A DNA stretch of 64,000 nt, from NCBI GenBank assembly GCA_963761125.1, contig CAVXFV010000004.1, positions 264,544 to 328,543 on the forward strand. Reading direction: 5' to 3'. Every line of letters starts with the position of its first letter. Positions within the stretch are counted from its first letter, which is position 1. The translations under genes were made by a program, and so were the position numbers. Source of the stretch: Candidatus Latescibacterota bacterium (GTDB lineage: Bacteria > Krumholzibacteriota > Krumholzibacteriia > WVZY01 > JAKEHA01). Below the pieces are notes generated by a model. It did no database searches. It worked only from the letters and a program-made list of their open reading frames with translations, and was not told the DNA's origin. Below are positions 2,812-41,722 of the stretch, in pieces.

Positions 2812-2812
2812 C

Positions 2813-3991: not shown

Positions 3992-4108
3992 CGCCGGGGA
4001 CCGTCGAAAATTCTGGACGAATCGGGTGCATCTGGGTTGGAATGAGACCCGCCCGCGGCACGCGTGCCGCATTAGCCCCTGACAGCAGGTTTAAAAAAGG
4101 GAGAGACG

Positions 4109-4849
4109 ATGAAGCGAATCGCCTTACTGATCTTGAGTGTTTTCCTCGCTGGAGCGTTCTACGCGTGCAGCGGCTCCGACGGTGCGAACGGTGTTGCCGG
4201 TGCGCCGGGGAAACCGCAACCGGTGAAAGTGGTCATGCTCGGCTCCGACAATAGCGGCGCCGCGGCGCGGGTGTTGTGGTTCAATGCGACCGGCAAACTG
4301 CCCCAGGGCTCGACAATCAACTACATCAACGTGGCGGATTCGATTCCACCGGTGTCGGAGCTTCAGAAGTATAATTGTGGCGTTCTCTACACGAACAATA
4401 CCGCCACCGACCCGGTCGCGCTCGGCAATCGGATGGCCGACTGGGTCGACGCGGGCGGCAAGCTGGTCGTCCTTCAGGCCGCTTTCAGCAACCCGTACTC
4501 CATCACCGGGCGCCTGATGAACGCGGCCTACTCGCCGCTTACCGTCGCCGCAGCGGCCGGAGATGGTGCGGACAAGACGCTCGATCTTTCGACGATCGCG
4601 TTCCCGCTGCACAAGATCTTCGTCGGAATCGATCTCCCGGGCTATGTGCGCCCTGGTGTCGTTAACTACTCCGTCCCCGGGGTGCAGAGCAACGCGACCG
4701 TACTCGCCAGCTTCAACGGCGGGCTCGTAGCGGTGGCGATCAACGCCAACAAGACCATCATTGCGATCAACGACTTCCCGGGGTCTTCGACCGAGTCGGT
4801 GAACGCCCTCGCGGCGAACTGCGTGATGTACCTGTCCGGAAAAATCTGA
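4109..4849 (+). CDS. hypothetical lipoprotein
   Basis: Lipobox signal MKRIALLILSVFLAGAFYAC, purine-rich RBS upstream, lower G+C than flanks. No family recognised. Confidence 0.7.
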   Translation: MKRIALLILSVFLAGAFYACSGSDGANGVAGAPGKPQPVKVVMLGSDNSGAAARVLWFNATGKLPQGSTINYINVADSIPPVSELQKYNCGVLYTNNTATDPVALGNRMADWVDAGGKLVVLQAAFSNPYSITGRLMNAAYSPLTVAAAAGDGADKTLDLSTIAFPLHKIFVGIDLPGYVRPGVVNYSVPGVQSNATVLASFNGGLVAVAINANKTIIAINDFPGSSTESVNALAANCVMYLSGKI

Positions 4850-4859
4850 CCGTCCATGT

Positions 4860-4895
4860 GGCGGGACGGCGCCCGGACGGCGTCGTCCCGCCTTT
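4860..4895 (+). terminator. candidate intrinsic terminator after the lipoprotein gene
   Basis: 9-bp GC stem ggcgggacg (4860-4868) / cgtcccgcc (4884-4892), 15-nt loop, then TTT. It overlaps the RBS region of the DinB gene. Confidence 0.4.
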
Positions 4896-4906
4896 GGAGC
4901 CTTTCC

Positions 4907-5380
4907 ATGGAGATGAAGCAGTACCTCGTCGACACGTTCATGTTCAACGATCGCGCGAACCGTCAGGTTCTGGAGAAGATCGTGGAACTCCCCGAGCGCG
5001 AACAGAGCGTCAAGTTTTTCAGCCATCTCATCAACTCGCAGAACAAGTGGCTCGCGCGAATCCAGCAGTACCCCCGCGATCCGGGTCTTGACTGGTGGAC
5101 GCCCGTCTACAAACTCGAAGACCTCGCCCGTGAATGGGACACGAGCCTGCGCGCCTGGCTGGAATTTCTGGACGGCAAGAGCGAGGACGACCTGATGGCG
5201 CCGGTCAAGTGGGTCGGATTCGATGGCGCGGAGTGGACGGCGCCGCTCAAGGACATCGCGCTCCAGTTGAACTACCACTCGATCCATCATCGCGCGCAGA
5301 TTCAGTCGTTGATCCGCGCACAGGGATTCAAGCCCGACTTCGTCGACTACATCGGGACGGTTTACCGCAAGCTCGGCTAG
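4907..5380 (+). CDS. DinB family protein
   Basis: Start moved to ATG 4907, with GGAG 7 nt upstream. DinB-like helical bundle pattern including LNYHSIHHRAQI. Confidence 0.8.
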   Translation: MEMKQYLVDTFMFNDRANRQVLEKIVELPEREQSVKFFSHLINSQNKWLARIQQYPRDPGLDWWTPVYKLEDLAREWDTSLRAWLEFLDGKSEDDLMAPVKWVGFDGAEWTAPLKDIALQLNYHSIHHRAQIQSLIRAQGFKPDFVDYIGTVYRKLG

Positions 5381-5385
5381 CGCGT

Positions 5386-7082
5386 CTACCGCGCGAGTAC
5401 CATCTTGCGTGTGACTGTCTCGCTGCCCGCGTGGACGCGATAGAAGTACACGCCGCTCGGTAACGCGCGGGCGTGGTCGTCGCGGCCGTCGAACGCGAGC
5501 CGCATCTCTCCGGCTTCGACCGTTCCCATCTCGATGTCGCGCACGCGGCGCCCCGCGGCGTCGAAGATCTCCACACTCACGGGTTCTTCTTGGCGGAGCG
5601 TGAGCTCCATCGCCGTTCCGGCGGAGAACGGATTGGGATAGTTGGGAGAAAGCATGAGCGCGGACGCGGACGGCGTGTTGTGGACGCCGGTCGGGATCGA
5701 CCCGCCGGGACCGACGCGCTGGGCGTAGATGTCCTGGTCGCTGTTTTGCCGGTCGAAGTAGGCGACGATCGCACCGCCAACGCCGTTGGCGACGATCGCC
5801 GGGGCGTACTGATCGTTCGGTGCCGTCTCGAGCGCCACGCCGTCGGCGGTCCACTGAACTACGCCGGATGCGTCGACCCGTTGCGCGTAGACGTCCTCGT
5901 CGCTGCCGCGCGAGTCGGTCCATGAGACGATCGCGCCACCGGAACCGTCGGCATCGATCGCCGGCTGCGCCTGGTTGTGGATGGCGGCGCACAGGGCGAC
6001 GCCGTTCGCCGCCCACAGGGCTGCCCCCGTCGGATCGATCCGCTGCGCATAGATGTTGTCGTCGTTGTAGGCCGCCCGGTAGTCCTCCCAGGTGACGATC
6101 GCGCCGCCGGCCCCGTCGGATGCGATCACGGGCGACAGCTGGTCGGCCGTCGCGGTGCAGACGACGGCGCCGTTCGCCGCCCATTGCACCGCTCCCGGCG
6201 CATTCACGCGCTGCGCGTAGATGTCCGCGGTCGTTCCCCCGCGGTAGTCCTGCCAGGTCACGATCGCGCCGCCGGCGCCGTCGGTGGTGATCTTCGGGAT
6301 CGATTGATTGGCGGTCGCGGTGCACAGGGCAACGCCGTTCGCGGCCCACTGGACCGCGCCGGACGCGTCGATTCGCTGCGCGTAGATGTTCGCGTCGCTG
6401 GTGGAGGCGCGGTAGTCGTACCACGTGACGATGGCCCCGCCGGCGCCGTCCGAAACGATGGTCGGGCTCCACTGACTGTTGACGGCGTTGCACAGGACGA
6501 CGCCGTCGGTCGTCCACTGCACCCCACCCGACGCGTCGATCCGCTGGACGTAGATGTTGAGGTTGGTGAAGCCGAGGCGGGCGTCTTCCCACGCGACGAT
6601 CGCGCCCCCGGCGCCGTCCGACGCGATGGCCGGGGCCGCCTGGTAGTCGGTGGCAGTGCACAGGGCGACTCCGTTGGCGGTCCATAGCGCGGCCCCCGAC
6701 GCATCGATTCGTTGCACGTAGATGTCGGCGGCGTCGTTTCGGGAGTCGTCCCACGCCACGATCATTCCGCCGGCGCCGTCGGAGACGACGACCGGGTCGC
6801 CCTGGCTGTTGGCCGCGGTGCAGAAGGCGATGCCGTTCGTCGTCCACTGCGCGACGCCCTGGCCGTCGACCCGCTGGGCGTAGAGGTCGGAAGAACTCCC
6901 CCCCGGAAGTCCCACCACGTGACGAATACGCCTCCGAGCCCGTCGGCAAGCAGTTCGGGGCGGTACTGGTCGCCGGTGGCGACGCAGATGGGGTCACCGC
7001 CGGCGGGCCAACTGGCGTGCGTTACGCCGGGTTGCAACAGGGACAGGAGTGCGCAAAGGAGAAGGGCGAAGCGGGTTTTCAT
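5386..7082 (-). pseudogene. DIYAQR-repeat secreted protein with T9SS-type C-terminal domain, paralogue A; one frame break at a G7 tract (plus-strand C7, 6898-6904)
   Basis: Signal peptide MKTRFALLLCALLSLLQPGVTHA (ATG 7082, GGAGG 8 nt upstream) is in ORF 6762..7256. The body is in ORF 5386..6918. There are eight D/N-I-Y-A/V-Q-R units. CTD: NYPNPFSAGTAMEL...SGVYFYRVHAGSETVTRKMVLAR. G8 instead of G7 would join the two frames (WWDFRGGSSSDLYAQR). Confidence 0.85.
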
Positions 7083-7233
7083 GGTGTCAGCCTCCGAACC
7101 CGGTCCGACAAGCCGTCGGCCGAGGCCAGGTGTGTGGGGCGCGCGCCGTGCAGGCGAAAATGTCTGCCACGGATCGAAGGAATAGGACGGACGCGGTCCC
7201 CGAAAATCACAGAAGGTTTCGGGCTGGGCGGGC

Positions 7234-7268
7234 AAAAAAAGCGAGGAGCCGGACATCCGACTCCTCGC
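7234..7268 (-). terminator. Rho-independent terminator downstream of paralogue B
   Basis: The minus strand reads GCGAGGAG-(12 nt loop)-CTCCTCGC followed by TTTTTTT (plus-strand A7 at 7234-7240). It lies 29 nt after the corrected stop of B (7297). Confidence 0.75.
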
Positions 7269-7296
7269 GCGTGTCTCCGATATTCCGAGTCGCCGC

Positions 7297-8989
7297 CTAC
7301 CGGTCGATCACCATCTTCCGCGCGACAGTCTCATTGCCGGCGTGCACGCGATAGAAGTACACGCCGCTGCGCAGTGGCCGGCCGCTTTCGTCGCGACCAT
7401 CGAAGGCGATCGCGTTGGATTCCGGCGCTCTCGTGGCCGAGGTCGAGGTGCCGCACCCGGTGGCCGGCAACGTCGAACACGTCGACGTTCACGGCGGCAT
7501 CCGCGGGGAGGTCGAGCGTCATCGCGGTCTCGCCCGAAAATGGATTGGGATAGTTCGCCGAGAGAGCCATCGCGGGTGCGCGCGGGGTGTCGTGAACCAC
7601 CGTCGGCACCAGGCCGCTGGAGCCGATGCGTTGGGCATAGATGTCTCCACCGCTGCCGCTCCGATAGTCTCCCCACGCGACAATCGCGCCACCGGAAGCG
7701 TCCGCGGTGACGACGGCAAAGGACTGCTGGCCCGCGGCGGTTTCCAGCGCGATCCCGTCGGTCGTCCACGAAATGTCTCCCGATGCCGTGATCCGCTGGG
7801 CGTAGATGTTGTAGGGGTCAGTGCTACCGCGGCCGTCGCCCCACGCGATGATCGCGGTGCCGCCTCCGTCCGCGGCAATCCCCGGCTGGAACTGGCCGCC
7901 CGCGGTGGTGCAGATCGCGATGCCGTCCGGCGTCCACTGGGCCACCCCGGACGCGCTGAACCGCTGCGCGTAGATGTCGCCGGAGGCGTCGTCTCGGGCA
8001 TCTTGCCACGCGATCATGGCGCCACCGCTTCCGTCCGCACCGATCGTCGGAACGGTTTGATCGTTCGCAGCGGTCGAGATCGCGACCCCGTCGGTCGTCC
8101 CTTGCGGGTTGCCCGAGGCGTCGATCCGGCGCGCGTAGATATCGCCGTCACCGTTGCGGTAGTCTTCCCATGCCACGATCGCCCCGCCGGCATCGTCGGA
8201 GACGATGGCGATGTTGTAGCGATCGCTCGCTGCCGTGCAGAGCGCGACGCCGTCGGCGGACCACTGGGACGCACCGGACCCGTCGATTTTCTGCGCATAG
8301 ATGGCGCCGTCGGTGCCGGCGCGATAGTCGTACCACGCGACGATGGCCCCGAGGTTCCCGTCCGATACGATCGCGGGGTCATCCTGATAGCCGGTGGCCG
8401 AACAGACGAGGACGCCGTCGGCGGTCCACTGCGGCACACCCGTCGCGCTGATCCGCTGGACGTAGATGTCGCTTTCGGGGCCTCGATAATCGGTCCACGC
8501 GATGATCGCGCCACCAAACCTCTCCGCGATGATCGCCGGACTGTACTGATCGTGCGCTTCGGAGCACACGGCGACGCCGTCGGTCGCCCAGGCGACGGTT
8601 CCCGTCTTGAAGATCCGCTGGGCGTAGATGTCGTTGTTGGTACTGCTCCGATAATCGTTCCATACCACGATTGCCCCGCCGAGTCCGTCCCCCACGATCA
8701 GGGGGTGGCACTGGTCGTCCACCGGGGTCGACACCGGGACTCCGTCTGGCGTCCACAACGCCACGCCCGCCGGGCTCATCCGCTGCACATAGACGTCGAA
8801 GTTGGAGCCGCTTCGATGGTCCTGCCACGTGATGAGCGCGCCGTTGCTGCCGTCCGAGGAAATCGTGACGAATTCCTGGGCGCCCGTGGCGGTGGTCACG
8901 GGGACACCGTCGGGTGCCCATTGCGCGAGCACGGGTGTGGCGAGGATGAACGCTAGCAGCACAGCGGGACACAATAACCGGATATTCAT
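7297..8989 (-). pseudogene. DIYAQR-repeat secreted protein, paralogue B; frame break in the C-terminal sorting domain (~7405-7425)
   Basis: ORF 7331..8989 ends in the aberrant tail ...GIQRDRLRWSRRKRPATAQRRVLLSRARRQ. Shifting one base after GIQ restores AIAFDGRDESGRPLRSGVYFYRVHAGNETVARKMVIDR with stop at 7297-7299. Signal peptide MNIRLLCPAVLLAFILATPVLAQW. Confidence 0.8.
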
Positions 8990-9390
8990 CTGCGGCCTCC
9001 AGGGGCGACGAACGCGCGGTGTCGGCGACCGCCATGTTGAAAGAAGCGGCGCCCGGCCGACGGTGCGGGCGCGCGGACTCGATGTCTCTACCGGTCGATG
9101 ACCATCTTGCGCGTGACCGCTTCACGTCCGGCGTGCACGCGATAGAAATACACGCCACTCGGGAGTGCGTGCGCGGCGTCGTCCATCCCGTCGAACACGA
9201 GCCGCGACTCGCCCGCCTGCAGGCGGCCGACTTCGATCTCGCGCACGCGGCGACCGGCCACATCGAAGACCTCGACGCGCACGGGTTCCGCGTCGCGCAA
9301 GGTGAGGTCGATCGTCGTGGCGGCGGAGAATGGATTGGGATAGTTCGCCGAGAGCGCGATCGTGGACGCGGACGGCGTATCGTGAACGCC
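8978..9390. repeat. ~410-nt direct repeat, copy 1 (5' end and leader of B + C-terminal domain of C)
   Basis: Manual alignment with 10768-11180 shows about 15 substitutions and one 1-nt indel. Confidence 0.8.
9016..9063 (-). promoter_or_regulatory. conserved bipartite leader motif, copy 1 (upstream of paralogue B)
   Basis: Plus strand: GCGGTGTCGGCGACCGCC (9016-9033), 18 nt, CCCGGCCGACGG (9052-9063). The first element lies 26 nt from the start codon. Confidence 0.5.
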
Positions 9391-10779
9391 CGTCGGCACG
9401 AGTCCATTCGGGCCGACGCGCAGGATGTCGAGGTCTCCGGCGGTGTCGTTGCCGAAGTCTTCCCAGGTGACGAACGCCCCGCCGGACCCATCCGGGGCCA
9501 CGGCGACGAAGGACTGCTGGCCCGCGGCGGTCACCAGACCGACGCCGTCGGCCGTCCATTTGGTCGTGCCCGACGCGTCGATGAGTTGCGCGTAGACGTC
9601 GTAGCTGGTCGACCCGCGATTGTCATTCCACGCCACGATGGCGTCACCGCCATCGTCCGAGGTGATTGCAGGGTCGGACGCATGATCGTTGGTCGTCAGT
9701 GCGACGCCGTTGGGAGACCACTGGGTGACCCCCGACGCGTTGAGTCGCTGGGCGTAGACGTTGTAGTGAGTACCATTTCCAATATCCGTCCATGCGATGA
9801 ATGCCCCGCCGGTTCCATCGGAGGCGACCGTCGGAAACGTCTGCTCGTGCCCCGTCATCGCGACGGCGACGCCGTTGCCAATCCACTGCACGTCGCCCGA
9901 TGCGTCCACCCGCTGGGCGTAGACGGTGTAGTTGGACCCGCTCCGATAGTCTTCCCACGCGACGATCGCGCCGCCCGCTCCGTCCGACACCGCGGCCGGG
10001 GTATCTTGATCGGATGCCGCCGTACAGAGTGCGACACCGTCGGTCGTCCACCGGACGGCGCCGGTGTGGTCGATCCACTGGGCGTACACGTCGAAATCGT
10101 TGCCGCCCCGAATGTCGTACCACGTGACGATGGCTCCGTTGGTGTTATGCGCGACAACGTCGCCCGTGAACTGATCACCGGTGGCCGTGCACAGCGGGAC
10201 GCCTTCGGCGGCCCACTGGATCGTGCCCGCGATATCGATGCTCTGGGCGTAGACGTCGGAATCGTTTCCGTTGCGACCGTCGTCCCACACGACGAGCGCG
10301 TCGCCCGACCCGGTGGGAACGAGCCGGGCGCGGTGTTCACCGCTGCCGGCCGTGCACACGGGAATGCCGTCGGTCGCCCACTGAACGTCGCCCGAGGTCA
10401 GGATCCGCTGGACGTAGGCGTGCGGGTCTCCGCTTCGAAAGTCGTCCCAGGCGACGATCACTCCGCCCCGTCCGTCCGACATGAGTGCGGGGTTCAATTG
10501 ATTGCCCGGAGCGGCGCAGAGGACGACGCCGTTGGTCCCCCACTGCGGGGTCCCGGAGCCGTCGAAACGCTGGGCGTAGATGTCGTAGTCGACACCGTTG
10601 CGGTGATCCGTCCACACGACCATCGCCCCGCCCACACCGATCGGCATGACCGCCTGGTTGTTCTGGGCGCCCGTTGCGTTGCATATGAGAACGCCCCCGG
10701 GGGTCCACTGGGCCCGCGCGGCCACCGGAAGAACGAACGTGCAGGGGAGTAGCAACGCGAGCAGAACCCGGATATTCAT
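9088..10779 (-). CDS. DIYAQR-repeat secreted protein with T9SS-type C-terminal domain, paralogue C (intact)
   Basis: Start trimmed to ATG 10779 (MNIRVLLALLLPCTFVLPVAARAQW). Eight repeats. CTD: NYPNPFSAATTIDLTLRDAEPVRVEVFDVAGRRVR...SGVYFYRVHAGREAVTRKMVIDR. Confidence 0.9.
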   Translation of the reverse strand: MNIRVLLALLLPCTFVLPVAARAQWTPGGVLICNATGAQNNQAVMPIGVGGAMVVWTDHRNGVDYDIYAQRFDGSGTPQWGTNGVVLCAAPGNQLNPALMSDGRGGVIVAWDDFRSGDPHAYVQRILTSGDVQWATDGIPVCTAGSGEHRARLVPTGSGDALVVWDDGRNGNDSDVYAQSIDIAGTIQWAAEGVPLCTATGDQFTGDVVAHNTNGAIVTWYDIRGGNDFDVYAQWIDHTGAVRWTTDGVALCTAASDQDTPAAVSDGAGGAIVAWEDYRSGSNYTVYAQRVDASGDVQWIGNGVAVAMTGHEQTFPTVASDGTGGAFIAWTDIGNGTHYNVYAQRLNASGVTQWSPNGVALTTNDHASDPAITSDDGGDAIVAWNDNRGSTSYDVYAQLIDASGTTKWTADGVGLVTAAGQQSFVAVAPDGSGGAFVTWEDFGNDTAGDLDILRVGPNGLVPTGVHDTPSASTIALSANYPNPFSAATTIDLTLRDAEPVRVEVFDVAGRRVREIEVGRLQAGESRLVFDGMDDAAHALPSGVYFYRVHAGREAVTRKMVIDR

Positions 10780-11180
10780 CTGCGGCCTCCAGGGCGACGA
10801 ACGCGCGGTGTCGGCGACCGCCATGTTGAAAGAAGCGGCGCCCGGCCGACGGTGCGGGCGCGCGGACTCGATGTCTCTACCGGTCGATGACCATCTTGCG
10901 CGTGACGGTTTCGCTTCCCGCGTGCACGCGATAGAAATACACGCCACTCGGGAGTGCGTGCGCGGCGTCGTCCATCCCGTCGAACACGAGCCGCGACTCG
11001 CCCGCCTGCAGGCGACCGACTACGATCGCACGCACGCGGCGACCGGCCACATCGAAGACCTCGACACGCACGGGTTCCGCGTCGCGCAAGGTGAGGTCGA
11101 TCGTCGTGGCGCCGGAGAATGGATTGGGATAGTTCGCCGAGAGCGCGATCGTGGACGCGGACGGCGTATCGTGAACGCCC
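10768..11180. repeat. ~410-nt direct repeat, copy 2 (5' end and leader of C + C-terminal domain of D)
   Basis: See copy 1. The offset between the copies is ~1790 nt, one array unit. Confidence 0.8.
10805..10852 (-). promoter_or_regulatory. conserved bipartite leader motif, copy 2 (upstream of paralogue C)
   Basis: Identical elements at 10805-10822 and 10841-10852. Confidence 0.5.
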
Positions 11181-12571
11181 GTCGGAAGCGCCCCGTCGGG
11201 GTTCACGCGCAACGCATAGACGTCGTAGTCCGCGCCGTTGCGGTGGTCCTGCCAGGCGACGACCGCGCCGCCGGCCCCGTCGGAGATGATCGCGTTCGGC
11301 CGCTGATTGAACGCCGCGGTCGAGAGCGCCACGCCGTCGTCGGCCCATTGTGTGGCCCCCGACGCGTCGACCCGCTGGGCGTACACGTCGTCGGTGCCAT
11401 TGCGACCGTCGCGCCACGCGGCGATCGCTCCACCGTTACCGTCCTCGACGATCAATGGCGAGGACTGGCTGTTCGCGGCGGTACAGAGCGCGACGCCGTT
11501 GGCGGTCCACTGGACCGCACCCGAGACGTTGATACGCTGCGCGTAGATGTCGTAGTTGCCGTCGCGGTCGTCGAACCACGTCACGATCGCCCCGGTGGTT
11601 CCGTCGGAAACGATCCGGGGAGCGAACTGAGTGTTCGTGGTGGCACTCACGGCGACCCCGTTTGCGGCCCACTGGACCGCGCCCGAGGCATTGACGCGCT
11701 GCGCGTAGACGTCATAGTCCACGCCGTTGCGCCGGTCTTCCCAGGTGACGATCGCCCCGCCGGATCCGTCCGAGGCGAGCGCGGGAACGAGTTGAAGGTC
11801 GGCGGCGGTGCAGAGGGGAACCGCACTCGATTGCCACTGGATCGCCCCCGACTCATTGATGCGCTGCGCGTAGATGTCGGAGGTCCCGCTTCGCGAGTCC
11901 TGCCAGGCGATGATCGCTCCGCCGCTGTCATCGGCGATCATCTCCGGGAAGTTCTGAACACCCGTGGTGGCACACACCGGCACGCCGTCGGTCGTCCACT
12001 GAACCACGCCGAAGCCGTCGATGCGCTGCGCGTAGATATCGGCGATGTCGACCCGGCCGTCGAACCACGTCACGATCGCACCGCCGACCCCATCCGGGAT
12101 CATCCGAATGCTGCCCTGATCGCCCGTCGCCGTGCACAGGGCGACGCCGACGCCGGCCCTCGTCATCCACAGGACCGCTCCCGACGCGTCGATGCGCTGC
12201 GCGTAGAGATCGTTGCCGGCCACACCCTGATAATTCTGCCAGGCGATGATCGCTCCGCCGGCGCCGTCCGAGGCGATCGCCGGGTTCAACTCCTCGTTGG
12301 GGCCGGTGGTCACGGGAACACCGTTGGTTGTCCACAGAATCCCGCCCGACGCGTTGATGCGTTGTGCGTAGATGTCGTTGCTGGTCGTGCTTCGACGGTC
12401 GTGCCAGACGATGATCACGCCGCCGGCGCCGTCGGACGCGAGCACCGGAGAAATCTGATCGCCCGCAAGGGTCGCGACGCCGGTCCCGTCAGTCACCCAT
12501 TGGGCGAGCGACGCGACCGGTCGGACGAGGCACGAAAGCAGCAACAGTGGGAGCAGGACCCGAGTATTCAT
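10877..12571 (-). CDS. DIYAQR-repeat secreted protein, paralogue D (intact)
   Basis: Start trimmed to ATG 12571 (MNTRVLLPLLLLSCLVRPVASLAQW). Eight repeats. The CTD is nearly identical to that of C. Confidence 0.9.
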   Translation of the reverse strand: MNTRVLLPLLLLSCLVRPVASLAQWVTDGTGVATLAGDQISPVLASDGAGGVIIVWHDRRSTTSNDIYAQRINASGGILWTTNGVPVTTGPNEELNPAIASDGAGGAIIAWQNYQGVAGNDLYAQRIDASGAVLWMTRAGVGVALCTATGDQGSIRMIPDGVGGAIVTWFDGRVDIADIYAQRIDGFGVVQWTTDGVPVCATTGVQNFPEMIADDSGGAIIAWQDSRSGTSDIYAQRINESGAIQWQSSAVPLCTAADLQLVPALASDGSGGAIVTWEDRRNGVDYDVYAQRVNASGAVQWAANGVAVSATTNTQFAPRIVSDGTTGAIVTWFDDRDGNYDIYAQRINVSGAVQWTANGVALCTAANSQSSPLIVEDGNGGAIAAWRDGRNGTDDVYAQRVDASGATQWADDGVALSTAAFNQRPNAIISDGAGGAVVAWQDHRNGADYDVYALRVNPDGALPTGVHDTPSASTIALSANYPNPFSGATTIDLTLRDAEPVRVEVFDVAGRRVRAIVVGRLQAGESRLVFDGMDDAAHALPSGVYFYRVHAGSETVTRKMVIDR

Positions 12572-12597
12572 CTGCGGCCTCCAGACACGACAAACGC

Positions 12598-12646
12598 GCG
12601 GTGTCGGCGACCGCCAACGATGCGGGGAACGGGCCCCGGCCGACGG
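12598..12646 (-). promoter_or_regulatory. conserved bipartite leader motif, copy 3 (upstream of paralogue D)
   Basis: GCGGTGTCGGCGACCGCC at 12598-12615 and CCCGGCCGACGG at 12635-12646. The spacer sequence differs from copies 1 and 2. Confidence 0.5.
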
Positions 12647-12666
12647 CTTCGGGGCCTCGCGTGTAG

Positions 12667-14364
12667 TTACCGGTCGATCACCATTTTTCGGGTGACCGTT
12701 TCGCCGCCGGCGTGCACGCGAAAGAAGTACACACCACTTGGCAAATAGTTGGCGTGGTTGTCCATGCCGTCGAACCTGAGTTCCGACGTTCCGGCGCCGC
12801 GCCGGCCGATGTCCATCTCGCGCACCCGGCGACCGGCCACATCGAAGACCTCGACGCGCACGGGTTCCTCGTCGCGAAGTGTCAGGTCGACGACGGTTTC
12901 GCCGGAAAACGGATTGGGATAGTTGGGCGACAGCGTCAACTCCGACGCACGCGGCGTATTGTGGACCCCCGTTGGAATCGTTCCGTCTGGAGTGACTCGC
13001 AGCGCGTAGATGTCGTAACTCGATCCGCCGCGAAAGTCCTGCCAGGCTCCGATCGCGCCGAAGCTGCCGTCGGACGCGAGGACCGGGTTCGTCTGGTCGT
13101 TCGCGGACGAACACAGCGTGACGCCATTGGTCGTCCACTGCACGACTCCGGTTGCATCCACGCGTTGCGCATAGACGTCGTAGTCCGTCGTGTTTCGATG
13201 GTCCTGCCACGCGATGATCGCGCCGCCGGCACCGTCCGAAACGACGGAGGGGAAGAGCTGATAGTCGGCGGCGGTGCAAACGGGGACTCCGTCTCCGGTC
13301 CAGAGGTTGACGCCGGACGCGTTCACGCGTTGTGTGTAGATGTCGTAGAAGCCGCTCGAGCGACCGTCAGCCCACGCCATAATCGCGCCGCCGGCGCCGT
13401 CCGAGGTGGCGCTCCCGATAGCCTGCGGACCCGGGGCGGTGCACACCGGAACGCCGTCGGTGGGCCACTGCGCCACCGCGGATCCGTTGATGCGCTGCGC
13501 GTAGATGTCTTCGTCCGCGTTTCGAAAGTCGTGCCACATGACGATCGCACCGCCGGCGTCGTCCGATGCGATAAAGGGCGTGGCCTCCTGGGCGGCGTTG
13601 GGGCACAGACGGGCGCCGTCGGTCGTCCACTGGACGGCTCCGGACGCGTCGATGCGCTGCATGTAGACGTAGGCGGCGGTTCCGTTGCGAATGTCGATCC
13701 AGACGATGATCGCGCCGCCTGTCCCGTCGGACACGATCTTGGGATACTGCTGGTCGAGCGCGGCGACGCACAGGGGAACGCCATCGGTCGTCCACTGCAC
13801 GACACCCGCCCCGTCGATCCGCTGCGCATAGATGTCGTAGTTCGAGCCGTTGCGATCGTCTTCCCAGGTGACGATCGCACCGCCGGTCCCGTCCGGGGCG
13901 AGGGTCAGGCGGTCGGAACTGGCAGCGGCCGTGCATAGCGCGACGCCGTTGGCCGTCCACTGCACGACGCCCGCGCTGTTGATCCGCTGCGCGTAGATGT
14001 CCACCCCGGTGGTGTTGAGATTGCGACGGTCCTCCCACGCGATGACGGCCCCGCCGGCGCCGTCTTCGACCATCGCCTGCGCGAGCTGGTCGTTCGTCGC
14101 CGTGCACACGGCCACGCCGTTGCTGGTCCACTGCACCATGCCGAACGCATTGACCCGCTGCGCGTAGATATCGCTGTTACGAACGCGGAGGTCTTGCCAC
14201 GCGACGATCGCACCGCCGGATCCGTCCGGGACGATCGTGGCGTGGGTCTGATCGTTGGGGACGATGCAGAGGCCGTTCCCGTTGGTCAGCCACTGCGCGT
14301 GCACCGCGATCGGTTGCAGGAAATACGCGGACAAGAGCATTACCGTTGCGAGTCTGAGTTTCAT
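12667..14364 (-). CDS. DIYAQR-repeat secreted protein, paralogue E (intact)
   Basis: 565 aa. Signal peptide MKLRLATVMLLSAYFLQPIAVHAQW. Repeats DIYAQRVNAFG ... DIYALRVTPDG. CTD: NYPNPFSGETVVDL...SGVYFFRVHAGGETVTRKMVIDR. It starts 19 nt after the stop of F. Confidence 0.9.
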   Translation of the reverse strand: MKLRLATVMLLSAYFLQPIAVHAQWLTNGNGLCIVPNDQTHATIVPDGSGGAIVAWQDLRVRNSDIYAQRVNAFGMVQWTSNGVAVCTATNDQLAQAMVEDGAGGAVIAWEDRRNLNTTGVDIYAQRINSAGVVQWTANGVALCTAAASSDRLTLAPDGTGGAIVTWEDDRNGSNYDIYAQRIDGAGVVQWTTDGVPLCVAALDQQYPKIVSDGTGGAIIVWIDIRNGTAAYVYMQRIDASGAVQWTTDGARLCPNAAQEATPFIASDDAGGAIVMWHDFRNADEDIYAQRINGSAVAQWPTDGVPVCTAPGPQAIGSATSDGAGGAIMAWADGRSSGFYDIYTQRVNASGVNLWTGDGVPVCTAADYQLFPSVVSDGAGGAIIAWQDHRNTTDYDVYAQRVDATGVVQWTTNGVTLCSSANDQTNPVLASDGSFGAIGAWQDFRGGSSYDIYALRVTPDGTIPTGVHNTPRASELTLSPNYPNPFSGETVVDLTLRDEEPVRVEVFDVAGRRVREMDIGRRGAGTSELRFDGMDNHANYLPSGVYFFRVHAGGETVTRKMVIDR

Positions 14365-14383
14365 GAGAGCCCTCCAGGCCGCC

Positions 14384-16805
14384 TCATCGCGTGATCAACA
14401 TTTTACGCGTGACGGTTTCGCCGTGCGCGGTGACGCGGTAGAAATACACGCCGCTCGCGAGTGCCGCGCCGTGCGCGTCGGTCCCGGCGAAGCGCACCGA
14501 CTGCCAGCCCGCGACCCCCGCGACGTCCATCGTCCGCACGCGGTGGCCCGCGACGTCGTACACCTCGACCTTGATCGAAGCCGCCGCCGGCAGTCCCACC
14601 TGCAACTCCGTCTCCGCGGTGAACGGATTGGGATGGTTCTGCAGCACGGTGAGTGCGGTGATCGAGGGCGTGTTGCCGACGTTGGTCGTGGCACTCACAC
14701 TCGCTTCATTCGACGGCGTGCTCTGGTTCGCATGCACGTCGGTGGCGGTGACGATATAATAGAGCGTCGTCGTCGGTGCGCCCGCGTCCACGAGTACCGA
14801 GTCGCTGTCTTCCGCGAGGAAGTTGCCGGGGATCGGCGTGACACCCGAAGCCGTCGCGCGGTACACGGCGTAGTCCTTGAGATCCGGAACGTGCACGCGG
14901 TTCCATTTGAGCATGCACGTCGGCGCCCACGCGCTGCGCGGTCAGATACAGCGGCGCCGCGGGCGCGAGGTTGTCCACGGAGTGGCCGCTCATCACATTC
15001 GATGGCCAGTTGATGTACGCGCTGTTGTACGCATGCGCGACCACCTGGAACTGGTGGGTCGCCGGACTGGCGGCTGTGGAGTCGTACTTCGTCGGCGCCG
15101 TGAAGGAGTAGGCGGCTCGGTAGATCGCGGACTGGTTTCCGACGAGCTCCCAGAAGTAGTCCGATGTCGTCGTCTTTTCCTCGCGGATCGCCGGCCCCGA
15201 AAAGTCGGCACCGACATCGACGAGCTTCACCTTCGGCACACCGTCTTCGGACGCGGCCATCGCCGCGGCCGCGTCGGTCGCGCGCCATATGGAATAATGG
15301 CTGATCACCTGCTGGTTCAGCGCGTCGCGGCCGCTCGCGTAGAAGTCGAGGGTGACCGCTCCGCCCTGGTCGCCGGGGACGTCGCTCACCGCGGACAAGA
15401 CCGGCTCGGGGGTCCCGTAGTACCCGTAGCGACCGTCGATGCGTTGTGCGTAGATGTCGTATGTAGTACCGCTCCGGTCATCCTGCCAGGCGATGATGGC
15501 GCCACCGTTTCCGTTGGAGACGATTGACAGAAGGTACTGCAGGTTGGTAGATGTGCAAACCGGCGCGCCGTCAGCGGCCCACAGCGTCGTTCCCGATAGG
15601 TCGATCCGCTGCGCGTAGACGTCACCGGAGGCCGCGCGATAGTCCTGCCACGCCACGATCGCGCCACCCGCGCTGTCCCCGACGATACAGGGACCGGTCT
15701 GATCGCCCGATGCGATGCTTAGCGCGACGCCATCGCCGGCCCACTGCACGGTCCCCGAGGCGCTGATACGCTGCGCGTAGATGTCATAGGTCACGGCCGA
15801 GCGATAGTCCTGCCACGCCACGACCGCTCCCCCGGCGCCGTCCGACGACACCACCGGGCTGTACTGAGCGTTGGCGGCCGCACATACGCGAAGGCCGCCC
15901 GCCGTCCACCGGTCGGCACCCGATGCATTGAGCCGCTGGGCATAGATGTCCGGCGAGTTTGCGTTTCGACTGTCATTCCACGCGACGATCGCCCCGCCGC
16001 TGCCGTCCGCAGCGATCGACGCGCTGGACTGATCGTACGCGAATGCGGCGAAAGCGATGCCGTTGGCCGTCCACTGGGCGATGCCGGAGGCATTGACTCG
16101 CTGGGCGTAAAGATCGTAGTTGGTCCCGTTGCGAAAATCGGCCCACACCCCGATCGCCCCGCCGGAGCCGTCCGACGTGATCGCGAGACCCGACTGATCA
16201 CCGGTGACGGCGCACAGGACCACGCCATTGCTCGTCCACTGCGCCACCCCGGACGCATTGATGCGTTGCGCATAGATGTCATAGCCGCCCCCGTTCCGGA
16301 GGTCTTGCCATGCAATGACGGCGCCGCCGGCGCCGTCCGCAACAATCTGCTGACCCGCTTGATTGGCGGAGGCCGTGCATACCGGCACGCCATTTGAAGC
16401 CCATTGCGTCACACCGGAGGCATCGACGCGTTGAGCAAAGATGTCATAGCCCGACGCGCCCCGAAAGCCGTCCCAGGCGATGATCGCCCCGCCCGCGCCA
16501 TCCGAGGTGATCACGGACTCCAACTGACCGTTCGGGTCGGTAGAGATGGGTACGCCGTCGAGCGTCCACAATGGAACACCCGACCCGCTGATCCGCTGGG
16601 CATAGATGTCGCCGTAGATATTGCTTCGGTAGTCGTACCAGGTAACGATAATACCGCCCGCGCCGTCCGAAACGGCTTTCGGGTTGTATTGAAACGAAGC
16701 TGCCGTCGAAACGGGCGTGCCGTTGTAGACCCACTGGGCGCGGGTCGAGACAGGGACGAGAAATTGCAGAACGAGAAATAGCGGAGCCAAGAGCCAGATG
16801 TTCAT
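14384..16805 (-). pseudogene. long-form DIYAQR-repeat protein, paralogue F (8 repeats + ~250-aa extra module with FN3-like segment + CTD); one frame break (~14912-14918)
   Basis: ORF 14706..16862 (start trimmed to ATG 16805, MNIWLLAPLFLVLQFLVPVSTRAQW) runs into ...RVGADVHAQMEP. ORF 14384..14914 continues LKWNRVHVPDLKDYAVYRA...NHPNPFTAETEL...SGVYFYRVTAHGETVTRKMLITR. Removing one base gives GADVQLKWN, as in paralogue H. Confidence 0.8.
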
Positions 16806-16827
16806 CTGCGGCCTCCGGGATGGAGAC

Positions 16828-16892
16828 GCGGTGTCGGTGACCGCCGACTGTATGGAAGGCACCCGGCCGACGGGATTTTCGGGTGTCGACGA
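16828..16892 (-). promoter_or_regulatory. conserved leader motif, copy 4 (upstream of paralogue F), with extra shared box
   Basis: GCGGTGTCGGTGACCGCC at 16828-16845, CCCGGCCGACGG at 16862-16873, TTCGGGTGTCGACGA at 16878-16892. Confidence 0.5.
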
Positions 16893-16982
16893 CCAGGCGG
16901 GAGTCCGCAGACTTCAGGGGGCTCTCGCGTGTTCAACGAGTCTAGCACCGAGGCAGGGCCGCCCGCAACGGGGCAGCGGCGT

Positions 16983-18677
16983 TCAGTGCGTGATTACCAT
17001 TTTGCGCGTGACGGCCTCGTTGCCAGCGTGCACGCGATAAAAGTACACGCCGCTCGGCAGAAAGTTGCCGTGGTCGTCGCGGCCATCGAATGCCATCCGT
17101 CGCGACCCCGCGCCCGGCCGGGTGAGGTCCATCCGCCTGACGAGTCGCCCGGTCACATCGTACACGCGAATGTCGACGTCGGTGTCTCGCGGGAGGTTGA
17201 GGTCGAACGTCGTCTCGTCGGAGAACGGATTGGGGAAGTTCGCAGAGAGCGTCATCTCCGTGAGCGTCGGGGTGTGGCCGACCGGCGTGGGGATCGACCC
17301 GCTCGCATTCAGGCGATGCGCGAAGATGTCGAGATCGGCGTTGCGCGCGTCCTGCCACGCGAGGAACGCGCCGCCGGCGCCGTCCGAGAAGATCGTGGGG
17401 GCTCGCTGCTCCCCGCTCGCGGTGGTGACGACGATGCCGTCGGTCGTCCACTGCGCGGCACCGGACGCGTCGACTCGCTGCGCGTAGAGATCGTACTCAC
17501 CGCCGCGCCGATCCTGCCATGCGACAATCGCTCCGCCGGCACCGTCGGAAGCGGTGCTCGTGCGATCCTGCGCGCCGCTCGCGGCGCAGACTGCCACGCC
17601 GTTCAGCGTCCACTGGGGAGCGCCGGTTGCGTCGATGCGTTGCGCGTAGATATCGGTTCCCGAAACGCGCGAGTCCTCCCACGAGATGACGGCCCCGTTC
17701 GCACCGTCGGTGGCGATGCTCGGGTAGTTCTGGAAGCTCCCTTCGGTGCAGACGGCGGCGTCGCCGGTCCACTGCGCCACTCCGGCGAAGGACACGCGCT
17801 GCGCGTAGATGTCCGCCGAGACCCCGCGATTGTCCTGCCAGGTCGCGATGGCGCCGCCGGCGCCGTCGGAGACCATCTCCAGATTGAACTTGAGTCCGCT
17901 CGACGTGCTGATCGCGGTCCCGTTGGCGCCCCATTGCGGAGTGCCGTCGGAGATCACGCGCTGCGCATACACGTCGTAGTGCGTGAGGCTCCGGAAGTCG
18001 AGCCACACGATCACCGCGCCGCCCGCGCCGTCGGACACGATGCGGGGACCGATCTGGCTTCCCTGGATGACGGCGATTTCGACGCCGTCGGTGAGCCACT
18101 CGACGACGCCCGTCGAATTCACGCGCTGCGCGTAGACATCCGGGGTCGAGAAGTTGTTTCGGTAGTCGTACCACGTGATGATCGCGCCGCCCGCACCGTC
18201 GGATGCGAGTTTGGGAACGAGCTGGTTGCGCGTCGCGGCGCAGATAAGGACTCCGTCGGTGGTCCACTGCGGCACGCCGTCGGCGTCGAGCTTCTGCGCG
18301 TAGATGTCGGCATTGGTGTTGACGCCGTCGGTGCGGCCGTCGTGCCACGCAATGATCGCACCGCCCGTGCCGTCGGGGATGATCGAGGGGATGAGTTGAT
18401 CGTCGGTCGCGACGCACACGGCGACACCGCCCGGGGTCCACTGGGGAACGCCCGCCCCGTTCAGCCTCTGTGCGTAGATGTCGGCCGCGGCGCCGTTTCG
18501 ATAGTCGTACCACGTGACGAACATCCCGCCGGCGCCGTCGGGGCAGGACGCGGTAGAAAGCTGGTTGCCGGTTTCGGTGCAGACACCCAAACCGCCCGAC
18601 TGCCACTGGGCGTGGGCGACGGACGCAACGACGAGCACAACGAGGACGACAACGAGACAGCGGTTCGGGAGTCTCAT
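16983..18677 (-). CDS. DIYAQR-repeat secreted protein, paralogue G (intact)
   Basis: 564 aa. Signal peptide MRLPNRCLVVVLVVLVVASVAHAQW. Eight repeats. CTD: NFPNPFSDETTFDL...SGVYFYRVHAGNEAVTRKMVITH. Confidence 0.9.
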   Translation of the reverse strand: MRLPNRCLVVVLVVLVVASVAHAQWQSGGLGVCTETGNQLSTASCPDGAGGMFVTWYDYRNGAAADIYAQRLNGAGVPQWTPGGVAVCVATDDQLIPSIIPDGTGGAIIAWHDGRTDGVNTNADIYAQKLDADGVPQWTTDGVLICAATRNQLVPKLASDGAGGAIITWYDYRNNFSTPDVYAQRVNSTGVVEWLTDGVEIAVIQGSQIGPRIVSDGAGGAVIVWLDFRSLTHYDVYAQRVISDGTPQWGANGTAISTSSGLKFNLEMVSDGAGGAIATWQDNRGVSADIYAQRVSFAGVAQWTGDAAVCTEGSFQNYPSIATDGANGAVISWEDSRVSGTDIYAQRIDATGAPQWTLNGVAVCAASGAQDRTSTASDGAGGAIVAWQDRRGGEYDLYAQRVDASGAAQWTTDGIVVTTASGEQRAPTIFSDGAGGAFLAWQDARNADLDIFAHRLNASGSIPTPVGHTPTLTEMTLSANFPNPFSDETTFDLNLPRDTDVDIRVYDVTGRLVRRMDLTRPGAGSRRMAFDGRDDHGNFLPSGVYFYRVHAGNEAVTRKMVITH

Positions 18678-18695
18678 TCGGGGCTCTCCTGGTTC

Positions 18696-18732
18696 GGTCA
18701 GTTCAATTCGGGCGGGAGCTTCGGAACTGACC
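18696..18732 (-). promoter_or_regulatory. perfect 9-bp inverted repeat in the leader of paralogue G
   Basis: ggtcagttc (18696-18704) and gaactgacc (18724-18732) flank a 19-nt spacer, 19-55 nt upstream of the G start codon. Function unknown. Confidence 0.3.
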
Positions 18733-18874
18733 GCTCTCGCAGGGAGATCTGTCGAAAAACAATTCTATCACGGCGGCCAGGGTGCCGCCCAGACACCGGG
18801 CGATCGCCACGCCTCCCCCCCGCGATCCCGGACGAAATGGTCCGATTGTTGCTTTCCCGGGACGGCAAATCTCG

Positions 18875-18884
18875 CTTATATAAG
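18875..18884 (+). promoter_or_regulatory. AT-rich perfect palindrome CTTATATAAG upstream of fadE (candidate -10 box or operator)
   Basis: This is the only AT-rich patch in the 235-nt divergent intergenic region. It lies 29 nt upstream of the fadE ATG. Confidence 0.3.
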
Positions 18885-18912
18885 AGACAGGCCACAGGCA
18901 AAGGGAGCCCAC

Positions 18913-20709
<1,797 letters not shown>

Positions 20710-20716
20710 GGGGGTA

Positions 20717-22083: not shown

Positions 22084-22225
22084 TCGGCACCACTTCAGAA
22101 TCTCAAATGGTACCGTTTTTGACCCTGGCCGGCGCCCTGCGTCCTACCCGGTGCTGGGCGGTGAGAGCGCGATCGGAGCGCCGTTTGTTAGGAAGGCTCG
22201 GCAGTACAGAGGGGTGAGGGCGCTC

Positions 22226-22951: not shown

Positions 22952-23044
22952 CTTCCAGCATCGCCAAGAATCCGAGTGTGCATGTTTCTAGAGATCCCGC
23001 CGTTGTTCCCGCCAAGGCTAGCCGGACACGGGAGTTTCTCAACC

Positions 23045-23573: not shown

Positions 23574-23605
23574 ATATTGTGACGCGAGCGCGATAGGAGG
23601 GCTGC

Positions 23606-23944: not shown

Positions 23945-23953
23945 TCAGGAACC

Positions 23954-28298: not shown

Positions 28299-30688
28299 TT
28301 ACCGCGCGATCACCATCTTGCGCGTCACCGTTTGTCCCGCCGCGTGCACCCGGTAGAAGTACACGCCGCTTGCGAGCGCTGCGCCGCGCGAATCGAGGCC
28401 GGAGAAGGGCACACCGTGCCACCCGGCGGGCTGTCCCTTGAACGCGAGCGTACTCACCCGTCGACCGGCGACGTCGAAGATCTCCACTTCGACATCCGAC
28501 GTCGCGGGCAATCCGATTTGTAGTTCCGTCGACCCCGTGAACGGGTTCGGATGGTTCTGCAGCACGGTGAGCGCCGTGATCGACGGCGTGCTGCCTACAC
28601 CGGTCGTGGCGCTGACGTGCGCTTCGTTCGACGGCGCGCCCTGGTTGTTGTGCACGTCGTAGGCGGTCACGATGTAGTAGAGCGTCGTCGTGGGGGCGCC
28701 GGCATCCACGAGAACGGTATCCGCGTTGCTGGCGAGGAAGTTCCCCGGTACCGGGGTCACACCGGACGACGTCGCGCGATACACCGAGTAGTCGCGGAGG
28801 TCACGGAGGTGGACACCGTTCCACTTCAACTGTACGTCCGCGCCGACGCGTTGCGCCATCAAGAGCAACGGCGCCGCGGGTGCGAGGTTGTCCACGGAAT
28901 GCCCGCTGCCCACATTGGATTGAAACGCGATGTAGCTGTCCGACTGGTCGTGCGCCATGACCATGAAGTACTCGGTCCCGGTGGCGCTCACCACCGAATC
29001 GGCGCGCGTGGACGCAGAGAATGAGTAGCCGGCGAGTCCCTGCGCGGCCTCTGTGCCGACCAGCTCCCAGTAGTAGTTCGAGCCGGTTGCTGCCGCGGCG
29101 TACGCGACGCGCGTGTCCAGACGCACCGACTTCATGTCCTGAGCGCAACGGTCTGGCCCGTGTTCGCGTCCATCGGAAGCGCGGTGACGGCACGCCAGAT
29201 CGAGTAGTGATCGATCGTGCGGGATTGGGAATATCGCGCGCACTCGCGGTCCAGTCCACGGCAACCCTGCCGCCCTGATCGTTGGGAATGTCGGCGACCG
29301 CCGTGATGACGGGCTCCGGGTGGCCCCAGTAGCCGTACTGAAACTCGACGCGCTGCGCGTAGACATCGACGGCCGTGCTGCGATAGTCGGCCACCGCGAC
29401 GATCGCGGCGTTAGCGCCGTCCCACGCAATGGACGCCGGGCTCTGAGACATCGAATGAGCGTCGATCGCGACGCCGTCAGTCGTCCATTGCACGGAGCCG
29501 AATGCACTGATGCGCTGCGCGTACGCGTCGCCTTCCGGGGTCCGATAGTCGGACCACGTCAGCACAGCACCCCCCCGCCCCGTCGGCCGTCATCGCAATT
29601 CCGTACTGCTCGTTCACATCGGTGCAAACGGGTTCGCCGTTCAGAGTCCACTGGGGAACGCCCGACGCGCTCACCCGATTCGCATAGATGTCCGTATTGA
29701 CGATCCGGTTGTCTTCCCATGCAACGATCGCACCGCCCGATCCGTCGGACACCAGGGCCGCCCATCCCTGAAAACCGGCGGCGACGCAGGCGCCGACACC
29801 GTTGGCGGTCCATTGCGGCGTACCGGCGGAATTCACGCGCTGAACGTAGATGTCGCCACTGCCGTTACGATAGTCGTCCCACTGGATGATCGCGCCCCCG
29901 GCGCCGTCGGGGACGATCTTGGGACTATACTGGGTGTTCGCCGCCGTCGAGATGGCAGCGCCGTTGGCGGTCCATTGCACCACACCCGATGCGGTCACAC
30001 GCTGCGCGTAGATGTCGGGGGACGCCGAGCGGTTGTCCTGCCAGGCGACGATCGCACCGCCCGCCCCGTCGGATGCAATTGCGGGATTCAACTGATCTCC
30101 GGCGAGGACGCACAGGCCAACGCCATTCGCGGTCCACTGGGCGACACCCGATGCGTTGATTCTGCGGACGTAGATGTCGTCGTCGACGCCGTTGCGAAAA
30201 TCCTGCCACGCCACGATTGCACCGCCCGCGCCGTCCGAAACGATCTGTTGAAAAACCTGGCTATTGGCCGCGGTACAGAGCGCAACGCCATTCGCCGTCC
30301 ACTGCGGTACCCCGGCTGAATTCACGCGCTGCGCGTAGATATCGTAGTTGCCCGAGCGGTCGTCGTACCACGAAACGATGAATCCGCCCGCGCCGTCGGC
30401 AACCAGGGTCGGAGCCACCTGCTGGCTCGGTAACGTGCAGATGGGGACTCCGTTGAGCGTCCACTGCGCGACGCCGGCCGCGTTGATGCGTTGGGCATAG
30501 AGGTCCGCGGAGACGGCGCGATAGTCGTACCACGTGATGAAGGCGCCCCCGGCCCCGTCCGAGATGACCTGCGCCGAATACTGCTCGTGGTCGGCGGTGC
30601 AAACCGGATACCCGTCAGGCTGCCACTGCGCATGGGCGATCGATGTCAGGGAAAGAACGAGAATGAGAGCGACCGGGCGAACACGCAT
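28299..30688 (-). pseudogene. long-form DIYAQR-repeat protein, paralogue H (dispersed copy); three frame breaks (C7 at 29570-29576, ~29215-29226, ~29136-29145)
   Basis: ATG 30688 (MRVRPVALILVLSLTSIAHAQW, RBS GGGAGGGG). The gene is pieced from ORFs 29477..30982, 28801..29565, an unlisted short frame (TIDHYSIWRAVTALPMDANTGQTVAL) and 28299..29507. It is colinear with paralogue F. CTD: NHPNPFTGSTEL...SGVYFYRVHAAGQTVTRKMVIAR. Confidence 0.8.
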
Positions 30689-30715: not shown

Positions 30716-30775
30716 GCGGTGTCGGGACCGCCCCTGGTGATTGCGGGCACCCGGCCGACGTTCGGGTGTCGACGA
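30716..30775 (-). promoter_or_regulatory. conserved leader motif, copy 5 (upstream of paralogue H), with extra shared box
   Basis: GCGGTGTCGGGACCGCC at 30716-30732, CCCGGCCGACG at 30750-30760, TTCGGGTGTCGACGA at 30761-30775. Confidence 0.5.
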
Positions 30776-41659: not shown

Positions 41660-41722
41660 GATGTCACGTCCACTGAGTTGGACCGCGGAGCAGTCCGGTT
41701 TCTTGCGCCCTTTTCGCGCGGG

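Follow-up and report, generated by a model that had tools for sequence, protein, structure and literature searches.

The 64,000-nt stretch of contig CAVXFV010000004.1 analysed here (hereafter the window) carries seven head-to-tail genes of one family on the minus strand (5386-18677) and an eighth gene of the same family, H, on the same strand but unlinked to the array. The encoded proteins consist of a signal peptide, eight repeats that are predicted to form a closed eight-bladed beta-propeller and a C-terminal domain (CTD) that matches a type IX secretion system (T9SS) sorting domain of type A. The repeat defines a very large family without a Pfam or other curated model and without a solved structure. 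From what was observed or computed here, namely the gene structure and domain identities, the fold prediction, the size and spread of the family and the pattern of divergence, we infer a binding function with putative ligands: the proteins are probably T9SS-exported surface binding proteins, and the eight genes an old repertoire of paralogues. The array itself is ordinary for genomes of the Fibrobacteres–Chlorobi–Bacteroidetes (FCB) group, and secreted propellers with T9SS tails are an already known kind of protein. What is new is the passenger family, which comprises thousands of clusters in uncultured phyla, has mostly an eight-blade unit and shows an unusual pattern of a constant framework combined with a hypervariable face. 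A curated model would annotate many proteins that are now called hypothetical and, if ligand binding is true, the family would explain part of the interaction of uncultured bacteria with their surroundings and could represent a stable natural binder scaffold.

The genes of the array (A to G) were delimited by ORF listing, translation and tblastn with the intact copy E, and gene H by tblastn and ORF translations (Table 1). A first-pass annotation of the same DNA had listed the seven tandem genes and the eighth one, eight repeats of about 54 aa in each, and start-to-start distances of 1790, 1792 and 1793 nt for B, C, D and E. The eight genes were recovered, far beyond chance, by tblastn, by the ORFs and by a repeat hidden Markov model (HMM) built from E; the spacing was the same, and the HMM counted exactly eight repeats of 50-58 aa in every copy. 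Independently of the HMM, a DNA repeat finder detected a period of 162-168 nt with up to 53 copies, and neither the repeat nor the tail was found by the respective HMMs elsewhere in the window. All eight copies begin with an ATG located 6-9 nt behind a GGAG(G) ribosome-binding site (RBS). In each signal peptide, inspection shows a basic residue and some 15 consecutive hydrophobic residues, with an AxA-type site preceding (Q/S)W. The annotated ending A-Q-W applies to seven of the eight copies, but copy A ends with A-S-W. Likewise, the description of seven similar genes is correct for A-E and G, which represent a short form, but not for F, in which about 250 extra residues separate the repeats from the tail, as in H. 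The ending A-Q-W was not interpreted according to the Q-rule, since Q-W is an ordinary blade-boundary motif; the Bacteroidetes Q-rule is moreover stated as not valid across the whole FCB group (PMC5837995). Only 19 nt (14365-14386) separate the F stop codon from the start codon of E, whereas the remaining intergenic gaps measure 95-215 nt, and F and E are therefore probably co-transcribed.

The tails of C, E, G and H scored 38.1-40.7 bits against TIGR04183 (cut-off 23), 27.9-34.7 bits against PF18962 (cut-off 27) and 37-44 bits against PF13860, FlgD_ig (cut-off 27), so the annotated T9SS type-A/FlgD-Ig tail was confirmed, and a tail HMM matched all eight copies. A PDB profile search with 39 family members met only FlgD immunoglobulin-like (Ig-like) domains, PorU, PG93 and gingipain sorting domains, and nothing over the repeat region. 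In the AlphaFold2 model of E the tail is a seven-strand sandwich (residues 476-563) with a block confidence (predicted local distance difference test, pLDDT) of 80-94. An Ig-like 3+4 seven-strand sandwich is the described fold of type-A CTDs, whose essential features are a lysine in the last strand and a glycine between beta3 and beta4 (PMC11285876). Both residues occur in all eight copies of the alignment, within (T/A)RKM(V/L)(I/L) and D(V/A)(A/T)G(R/H)(R/L)V, respectively (motifs assigned by inspection). In every testable respect, that is, CTD scores, sandwich fold, Lys and Gly residues and signal peptide, the proteins agree with T9SS type-A cargo, and export by the T9SS followed by surface display would be consistent with these sequence features. 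Compared with the cargo of Bacteroidota, such as RgpB, PorU and PorZ, they share the signal peptide, the C-terminal Ig-like sandwich of about 90 aa, the passing of the curated HMM cut-offs, the Lys and Gly residues and the PDB profile matches to PorU, PG93 (PorZ) and gingipain CTDs. They differ in their passenger domain, which belongs to no described cargo family, and in their host. This host is most probably a Krumholzibacteriota-like bacterium within the FCB group because the named relatives of the thiolase encoded in the window, 74-83% identical, come from Krumholzibacteria or Latescibacteria; several FCB phyla have been listed as possibly having a T9SS, but the phylum of such a host is not among them (PMC11285876).

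Alternatively, the tail could be a mere FlgD-type Ig-like surface or adhesion domain, with export proceeding without the T9SS and the propeller working independently of that system. The PF13860 score is indeed above that of PF18962, no paper pairing Krumholzibacteria and T9SS was found, and the eight-blade module occurs without a detectable tail in Chloroflexota, Nitrospiraceae, Actinomycetota, Acidobacteriota and a Promethearchaeota metagenome-assembled genome (MAG). However, the TIGR04183 cut-off is exceeded by 15-18 bits, the domain is strictly C-terminal with its last-strand Lys in every copy, the tail-bearing forms come from FCB-group MAGs and are labelled T9SS type A sorting proteins by NCBI, and the commonest neighbours of the family genes are other Por_Secre_tail proteins. 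We consider this explanation unlikely. A FlgD flagellar hook-capping protein was rejected as a candidate, as only the Ig-like part (PF13860) matches, the N-terminal domain of FlgD is missing and no flagellar genes are present in the neighbourhood.

The AlphaFold2 model of E, computed with the alignment of the 39 family members (pLDDT 90.2, predicted template modelling score 0.80), shows, in order, a signal helix (residues 2-21), eight times four strands (25-463), a short linker of low confidence and the sandwich described above, so the repeats are modelled as a closed eight-bladed propeller. The eight-blade domain is independently supported by the number of blades in 258 homologues, which peaks at 8 (109 proteins) and 16 (88 proteins); three proteins have 24 blades and the rest lie between these values, mostly with 13-15. 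In agreement with the first-pass annotation, which placed the repeat in no named family, no Pfam model matched it. The sole curated repeat model that touched it was TIGR04275 (beta_prop_Msarc), and membership was rejected, since the scores of 27.4-47.5 bits do not reach the whole-protein cut-off of 85. The matches reach E values down to 1e-12 and cover several stretches per protein over the GGAIVxWxDxR strand of the blades, but only about 17-28 of the 40 model positions are aligned, which indicates remote homology at best. The Asp-Box/BNR propeller was also rejected: the blade consensus SDGxGGAIVxW is placed in the B-C turn, the SxDxGxTW motif is absent and no BNR or sialidase Pfam model matched at E <= 1.

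Structural comparison with Foldseek (PDB, BFVD) returned generic propellers and no close solved relative, with identities of 6-15% and template modelling (TM) scores normalised to the query of at most 0.46. The best match was the lectin CV39L (E = 6e-10, TM 0.45 for the query and 0.66 for the target, 11-13% identity), with PorZ, sialidases, DPP4/8/9 and GH145 next. CV39L (PDB 6gxs) is a symmetric propeller lectin and shares with the window proteins a high internal sequence symmetry of the blades. However, it has about 360 residues versus about 440 in the window propeller, it gives no match at the sequence level, and the variable residues of the window proteins differ from blade to blade, which implies that the variable face is asymmetric and does not form a ring of equal sugar-binding sites. 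The window proteins also share with PorZ of Porphyromonas gingivalis (PDB 5m11), which has two propellers, the combination of propeller and CTD (Foldseek E = 7e-10), but the TM score is only 0.17-0.21, the PDB sequence profile meets 5m11 over the tail and not the propeller, and PorZ is a component of the T9SS and not a multi-copy family. The likeness to symmetric propeller lectins and to PorZ is thus one of fold or architecture only. For the insert of F and H, a long-form homologue (P0095, 59% identical to the insert of F; model pLDDT 87) was modelled with a beta-sandwich and a fibronectin type III-like (Fn3-like) domain between the propeller and the tail. Foldseek matched this model with FnIII/Ig tandem ectodomains, as expected for a stalk, and the insert of F and H accordingly probably comprises two Ig/Fn3-like stalk domains.

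The exhaustive search of representatives yielded 8,461 family clusters at 50% identity with E <= 1e-30 and 21,011 with E <= 1e-10, the longest protein having 5,506 residues; a word-indexed protein search gave at least 8000 matches. Where the members have names, these are 'hypothetical' or 'T9SS type A sorting domain-containing protein', and no published description of the repeat was found in the general T9SS, signal-peptide and propeller literature. Relatives, none above 53% identity, are present at no fewer than 583 loci of species-representative genomes, all of them MAGs among the matches listed. The hosts belong to Latescibacteria, Krumholzibacteriota, Eisenbacteria, Ignavibacteriota, Bacteroidota and Sumerlaeaceae and, in a second set, to Chloroflexota, Actinomycetota, Nitrospiraceae, Acidobacteriota, Brocadia and one Promethearchaeota MAG. 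In several loci of this second set, no sorting tail was detected beside the repeats; examples are L055 (Nitrospiraceae), L048 and L071 (Dehalococcoidia), L037 (Actinomycetota) and L056 (Promethearchaeota). The tail-less eight-blade module thus also occurs outside the FCB group, including the Asgard archaeal MAG (L056 10001-11383), with binning errors being possible. Tandem arrays were found in other genomes as well, with four copies in L012 and in L055 and three in L046 and in L059. Among 150 ORFs flanking family genes in other genomes, no recurrent partner gene was found except other sorting-tail proteins.

The distribution of variability within the blade was analysed on 936 blades from 117 eight-blade proteins aligned to one model of 55 positions. 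About 20 positions are near-fixed (W1, G5, C9, Q15, P18, D23, G24, G26, G27, A28, I29, W32, D34, R36, D42, Y44, Q46, R47 and G52), and nine positions (14, 16, 17, 19, 33, 35, 39, 40 and 41) are hypervariable, with an entropy of 3.2-4.0 bits, or 2.8-4.0 bits when each blade is considered. The conserved positions are conserved in all eight blades and the variable ones variable in all eight. According to the strand limits of the AlphaFold2 model, the nine variable positions are located in or beside the A-B and C-D loops. These loops would lie on one face of the disc, with the conserved DGxGG (B-C) and SG..QW (D-A) turns on the opposite face, and they would give about 72 variable positions per propeller (about 9 of 55 in each blade).

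The pooled ratio of nonsynonymous to synonymous substitution rates (dN/dS) was calculated for recently diverged blade pairs from related loci. Based on their own dS, the variable positions gave 1.53 for 24 pairs with 85-97% DNA identity and 1.03 for 238 pairs with 75-85%; based on the overall dS, the values were 1.43 (bootstrap 1.18-1.76) and 1.32 (1.18-1.45), respectively. All other blade positions of the same pairs gave 0.27-0.28. Compared with other proteins of the window, the variable positions are rich in Tyr (4.7x), Asn (3.1x) and Ser (2.2x) and poor in Arg and Lys (0.3x each). This Tyr/Ser/Asn-rich composition resembles that of binding surfaces, and would not be expected from mutational drift in a genome with 65% G + C.

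The same alignment bears on the possibility that the propellers are secreted enzymes of the glycoside hydrolase, lyase or sialidase type, like many T9SS cargos. The Foldseek matches include sialidases, GH43, GH145 (BT3686), the PL25 ulvan lyase and the DPP4/8/9 propellers, but these are the generic matches of low identity and low query-normalised TM mentioned above, and no enzyme model of Pfam or NCBIfam matched. Moreover, no residue conserved in one blade only was found among the 936 blades, the conservation being the repeat consensus itself, which argues against a single asymmetric active site. An enzymatic role is thus quite improbable.

The copies present in the window are old and not recently amplified, judging from their divergence. 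Their propeller regions are 41-53% identical at the protein level and 56-64% at the DNA level, and dS is near saturation (0.8-1.9). The gene-wide dN/dS of 0.23-0.55 is indicative of purifying selection, and gene-wide positive selection was ruled out. Apart from C and G, each window copy has 20 or more foreign propellers that score above its best sister copy; a signal of recent in-situ amplification is thus missing from the propellers. The first-pass annotation had described an in-situ amplified family, which, if recent amplification was meant, is contradicted by the dS values and by the fact that the propellers are no closer to their sisters than to homologues from other phyla. It had also pointed to divergent repeat bodies between conserved termini. 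This holds for the tails, which are 46-75% identical versus 41-53% for the bodies, but not for the signal peptides, which are 17-62% identical and thus not conserved. Finally, its proposal of a diversifying, ligand-facing repertoire is retained as far as a variable and possibly ligand-facing surface is concerned, but diversification does not extend to the genes as a whole, in which only about 9 of 55 positions per blade reach or exceed a dN/dS of 1.

In the tail phylogeny, the tails of A-E cluster together, and those of F and H cluster with the tails of other long forms. A tract of about 395 nt that runs over the tail of C and the B leader has a 96-97% identical counterpart in the tail of D and the C leader, whereas the adjoining propeller DNA is about 60% identical; the sequences therefore indicate recent gene conversion between these tails and leaders. 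Positional orthology of the blades was undetectable, as blades of one gene are 47% identical, and those of different genes 48% when they share the blade index and 47% when they do not. A study of repetitive propellers has named WD40, VCBS and Asp-Box hubs (Pereira and Lupas 2022, PMC9218822). As in the recently amplified propellers of that study, the blades derive from one ancestral blade, and in some homologues (L003 10000-11282, L024 5017-6231, L028 1-966, L047 4269-5337 and L021 2899-4112) neighbouring blades of one gene, 1-3 blades apart, share 78-84% DNA identity, which points to recent internal amplification or homogenisation. The window copies are unlike these, since the blades of one gene are about 47% identical in protein and about 62% in DNA, without positional orthology. 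The age of the locus is also apparent from its surroundings. Three metagenome contigs have one or two family genes next to a gene that is 68-70% identical to the DinB-like neighbour of copy A and, because this adjacency is shared with relatives whose DinB has diverged to such an extent, the array locus is old.

Taken together, the favoured explanation, T9SS-exported surface binding proteins, would operate as follows. The precursor of each gene would be exported by Sec, and its last 90 or so residues, the type-A sorting domain, would guide the protein, already folded, across the outer membrane via the type IX translocon, for release or anchoring at the cell surface, the long forms F and H being shown on an Ig/Fn3 stalk. 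The propeller would bind via the variable face of the AB and CD loops, the framework and the BC/DA-loop face being almost invariant, and the hypervariable positions would give each paralogue its own recognition surface. The array would represent an old tandem paralogue family at a kept chromosomal position, in which gene conversion occasionally evens out the 3' ends and leaders. A further-reaching and more doubtful suggestion is that the whole family is a natural hypervariable binding scaffold and that the eight copies are one genome's repertoire of specificities, with targets such as polysaccharides, other cells or phages. It draws on the family size and phylum spread, the invariant frame with about 72 variable positions, the rate at these positions, neutral or above, and the multi-copy arrays.

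Several points weigh against the binding-protein explanation. None of the genes of the T9SS machinery (SprA/Sov, PorV, PorU, PorK-N) was found in the 64-kb window, and the literature search for Krumholzibacteria with type IX secretion or T9SS returned no paper. The Foldseek matches mix propeller enzymes with a lectin, all with low TM scores. The loops were assigned to the faces of the disc from the up-down topology of the blades and not from model coordinates. The sites compared by dN/dS were picked by entropy, the pairs are non-independent and the NG86 (Nei–Gojobori) method inflates the ratio in GC-rich genes, so values near 1 at the variable positions may reflect only a lack of constraint. 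Finally, the reading frame of four of the eight copies is broken as assembled.

The last point concerns six frameshifts, one each in A, B and F and three in H (Table 1). They probably represent indel errors of the assembly, plausibly of a long-read MAG, because an unrelated transporter gene of the MMPL/RND type is also split over two frames by two frameshifts and because the family homologues that adjoin DinB in short-read metagenome contigs align with the window copies in a single frame over their full length. A metagenome scan for same-species contigs with the DinB neighbour gave only relatives at 54-84% identity. The frameshifts could also be taken for a sign of phase-variable contingency loci, in which slippage of poly-G tracts turns the genes on or off. 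The window has three C7/G7 runs, all located in or beside family genes, and two of them coincide exactly with frameshifts in A and H; the third (18815-18821) is found upstream of G, in the divergent region on the side of the acyl-CoA dehydrogenase gene. However, four of the six frameshifts are outside homopolymers, as is the one examined at base level in the unrelated transporter gene (near 45950, a 1-nt insertion, CTC[G]GCG), and the homologues in short-read contigs stay in one frame throughout. G runs are moreover a natural product of the conserved DGxGG codons and, since the family occupies about one quarter of the window, two or three of three tracts falling inside it is not significant. 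Phase variation is therefore very unlikely. That the array is an assembly artefact of collapsed or expanded repeats is scarcely credible: indel errors are clearly present and the tract shared by C and D is nearly identical, but the propeller DNA is too divergent among the copies for assembler confusion, sequence, RBS and start codon are individual to each copy, and comparable arrays occur in independent assemblies.

Table 1. Positions of the family genes, their parts and neighbouring features; numbers refer to the window unless a related locus is named.
Feature	Positions	Strand	Remarks
Copy A	5386..7082	-	short form (signal peptide, 8 blades, CTD); 1 frameshift
Copy B	7297..8989	-	short form; 1 frameshift inside CTD
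Copy C	9088..10779	-	short form, intact
Copy D	10877..12571	-	short form, intact
Copy E	12667..14364	-	short form, intact, 565 aa
Copy E, signal peptide	14293-14364	-	
Copy E, propeller	12976-14292	-	
Copy E, CTD	12670-12939	-	
Copy F	14384..16805	-	long form: 8 blades, ~250-aa Ig/Fn3-like stalk, CTD; 1 frameshift
Copy G	16983..18677	-	short form, intact
Copy H	28299..30688	-	long form like F; 3 frameshifts
Near-identical tract	9000..9395 vs 10789-11184	-	96-97% identical, ~395 nt
G7 tract (C7 on + strand)	6898..6904	-	frameshift site in A; G8 or G5 restores frame
Copy B frameshift	near 7420	-	inside CTD, non-homopolymer
Copy F frameshift	near 14912	-	non-homopolymer
Copy H frameshifts	G7 tract 29570-29576, ~29217, ~29139	-	last two non-homopolymer
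MMPL/RND-type transporter gene	~45440-47760	+	unrelated; split over two frames by 2 frameshifts, ~45950 and near 46600
Terminator-like hairpin	7234..7268	-	12 bp + T7 run; between B and A, after B
Bipartite leader motif CGTCGGCCGGG-N24-27-CCGACACCGC	9016..9062	-	upstream of B
Bipartite leader motif, further sites	10805-10851 (C), 12598-12645 (D), 16828-16872 (F), 30716-30760 (H)	-	
3-hydroxyacyl-CoA dehydrogenase	1-1392		array flank
Thiolase	2804-3991		array flank
DinB-like gene	4856-5380		abuts copy A
Acyl-CoA dehydrogenase	ORF 18505-20709		opposite flank of array
DinB-adjoining family loci	L083 6182-11029, L088 1392-3498, L091 898-3259		two copies in L083

The leaders of B, C, D, F and H share a bipartite motif, CGTCGGCCGGG-N24-27-CCGACACCGC, which forms an imperfect inverted repeat 25-75 nt 5' of the ATG. 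Its five matches compare with zero expected, and it was found neither elsewhere in the window nor in 80 related loci. The RNAalifold fold of the shared leader was weak and without real covariation; possible roles of the motif are promoter, operator and RNA leader. The window contained no tRNA gene and no Rfam match.

The array is located inside an apparent cluster of fatty-acid beta-oxidation genes (1-5380 and 18505-20709), which suggests that it was inserted into an operon neighbourhood older than itself. A stretch of lower G + C content (20000-24000; 0.57-0.58 versus about 0.65) begins directly behind the acyl-CoA dehydrogenase gene; it includes a gene with a Schlafen/AlbA_2 domain (20717-21343) and several ORFs without a Pfam match and may be an acquired island. 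Further along the window, in the region 40740-42334, the minus strand carries a gene for an extracytoplasmic function (ECF)-type sigma factor (41723-42334) and, after it, two small ORFs that possibly code for an anti-sigma factor.

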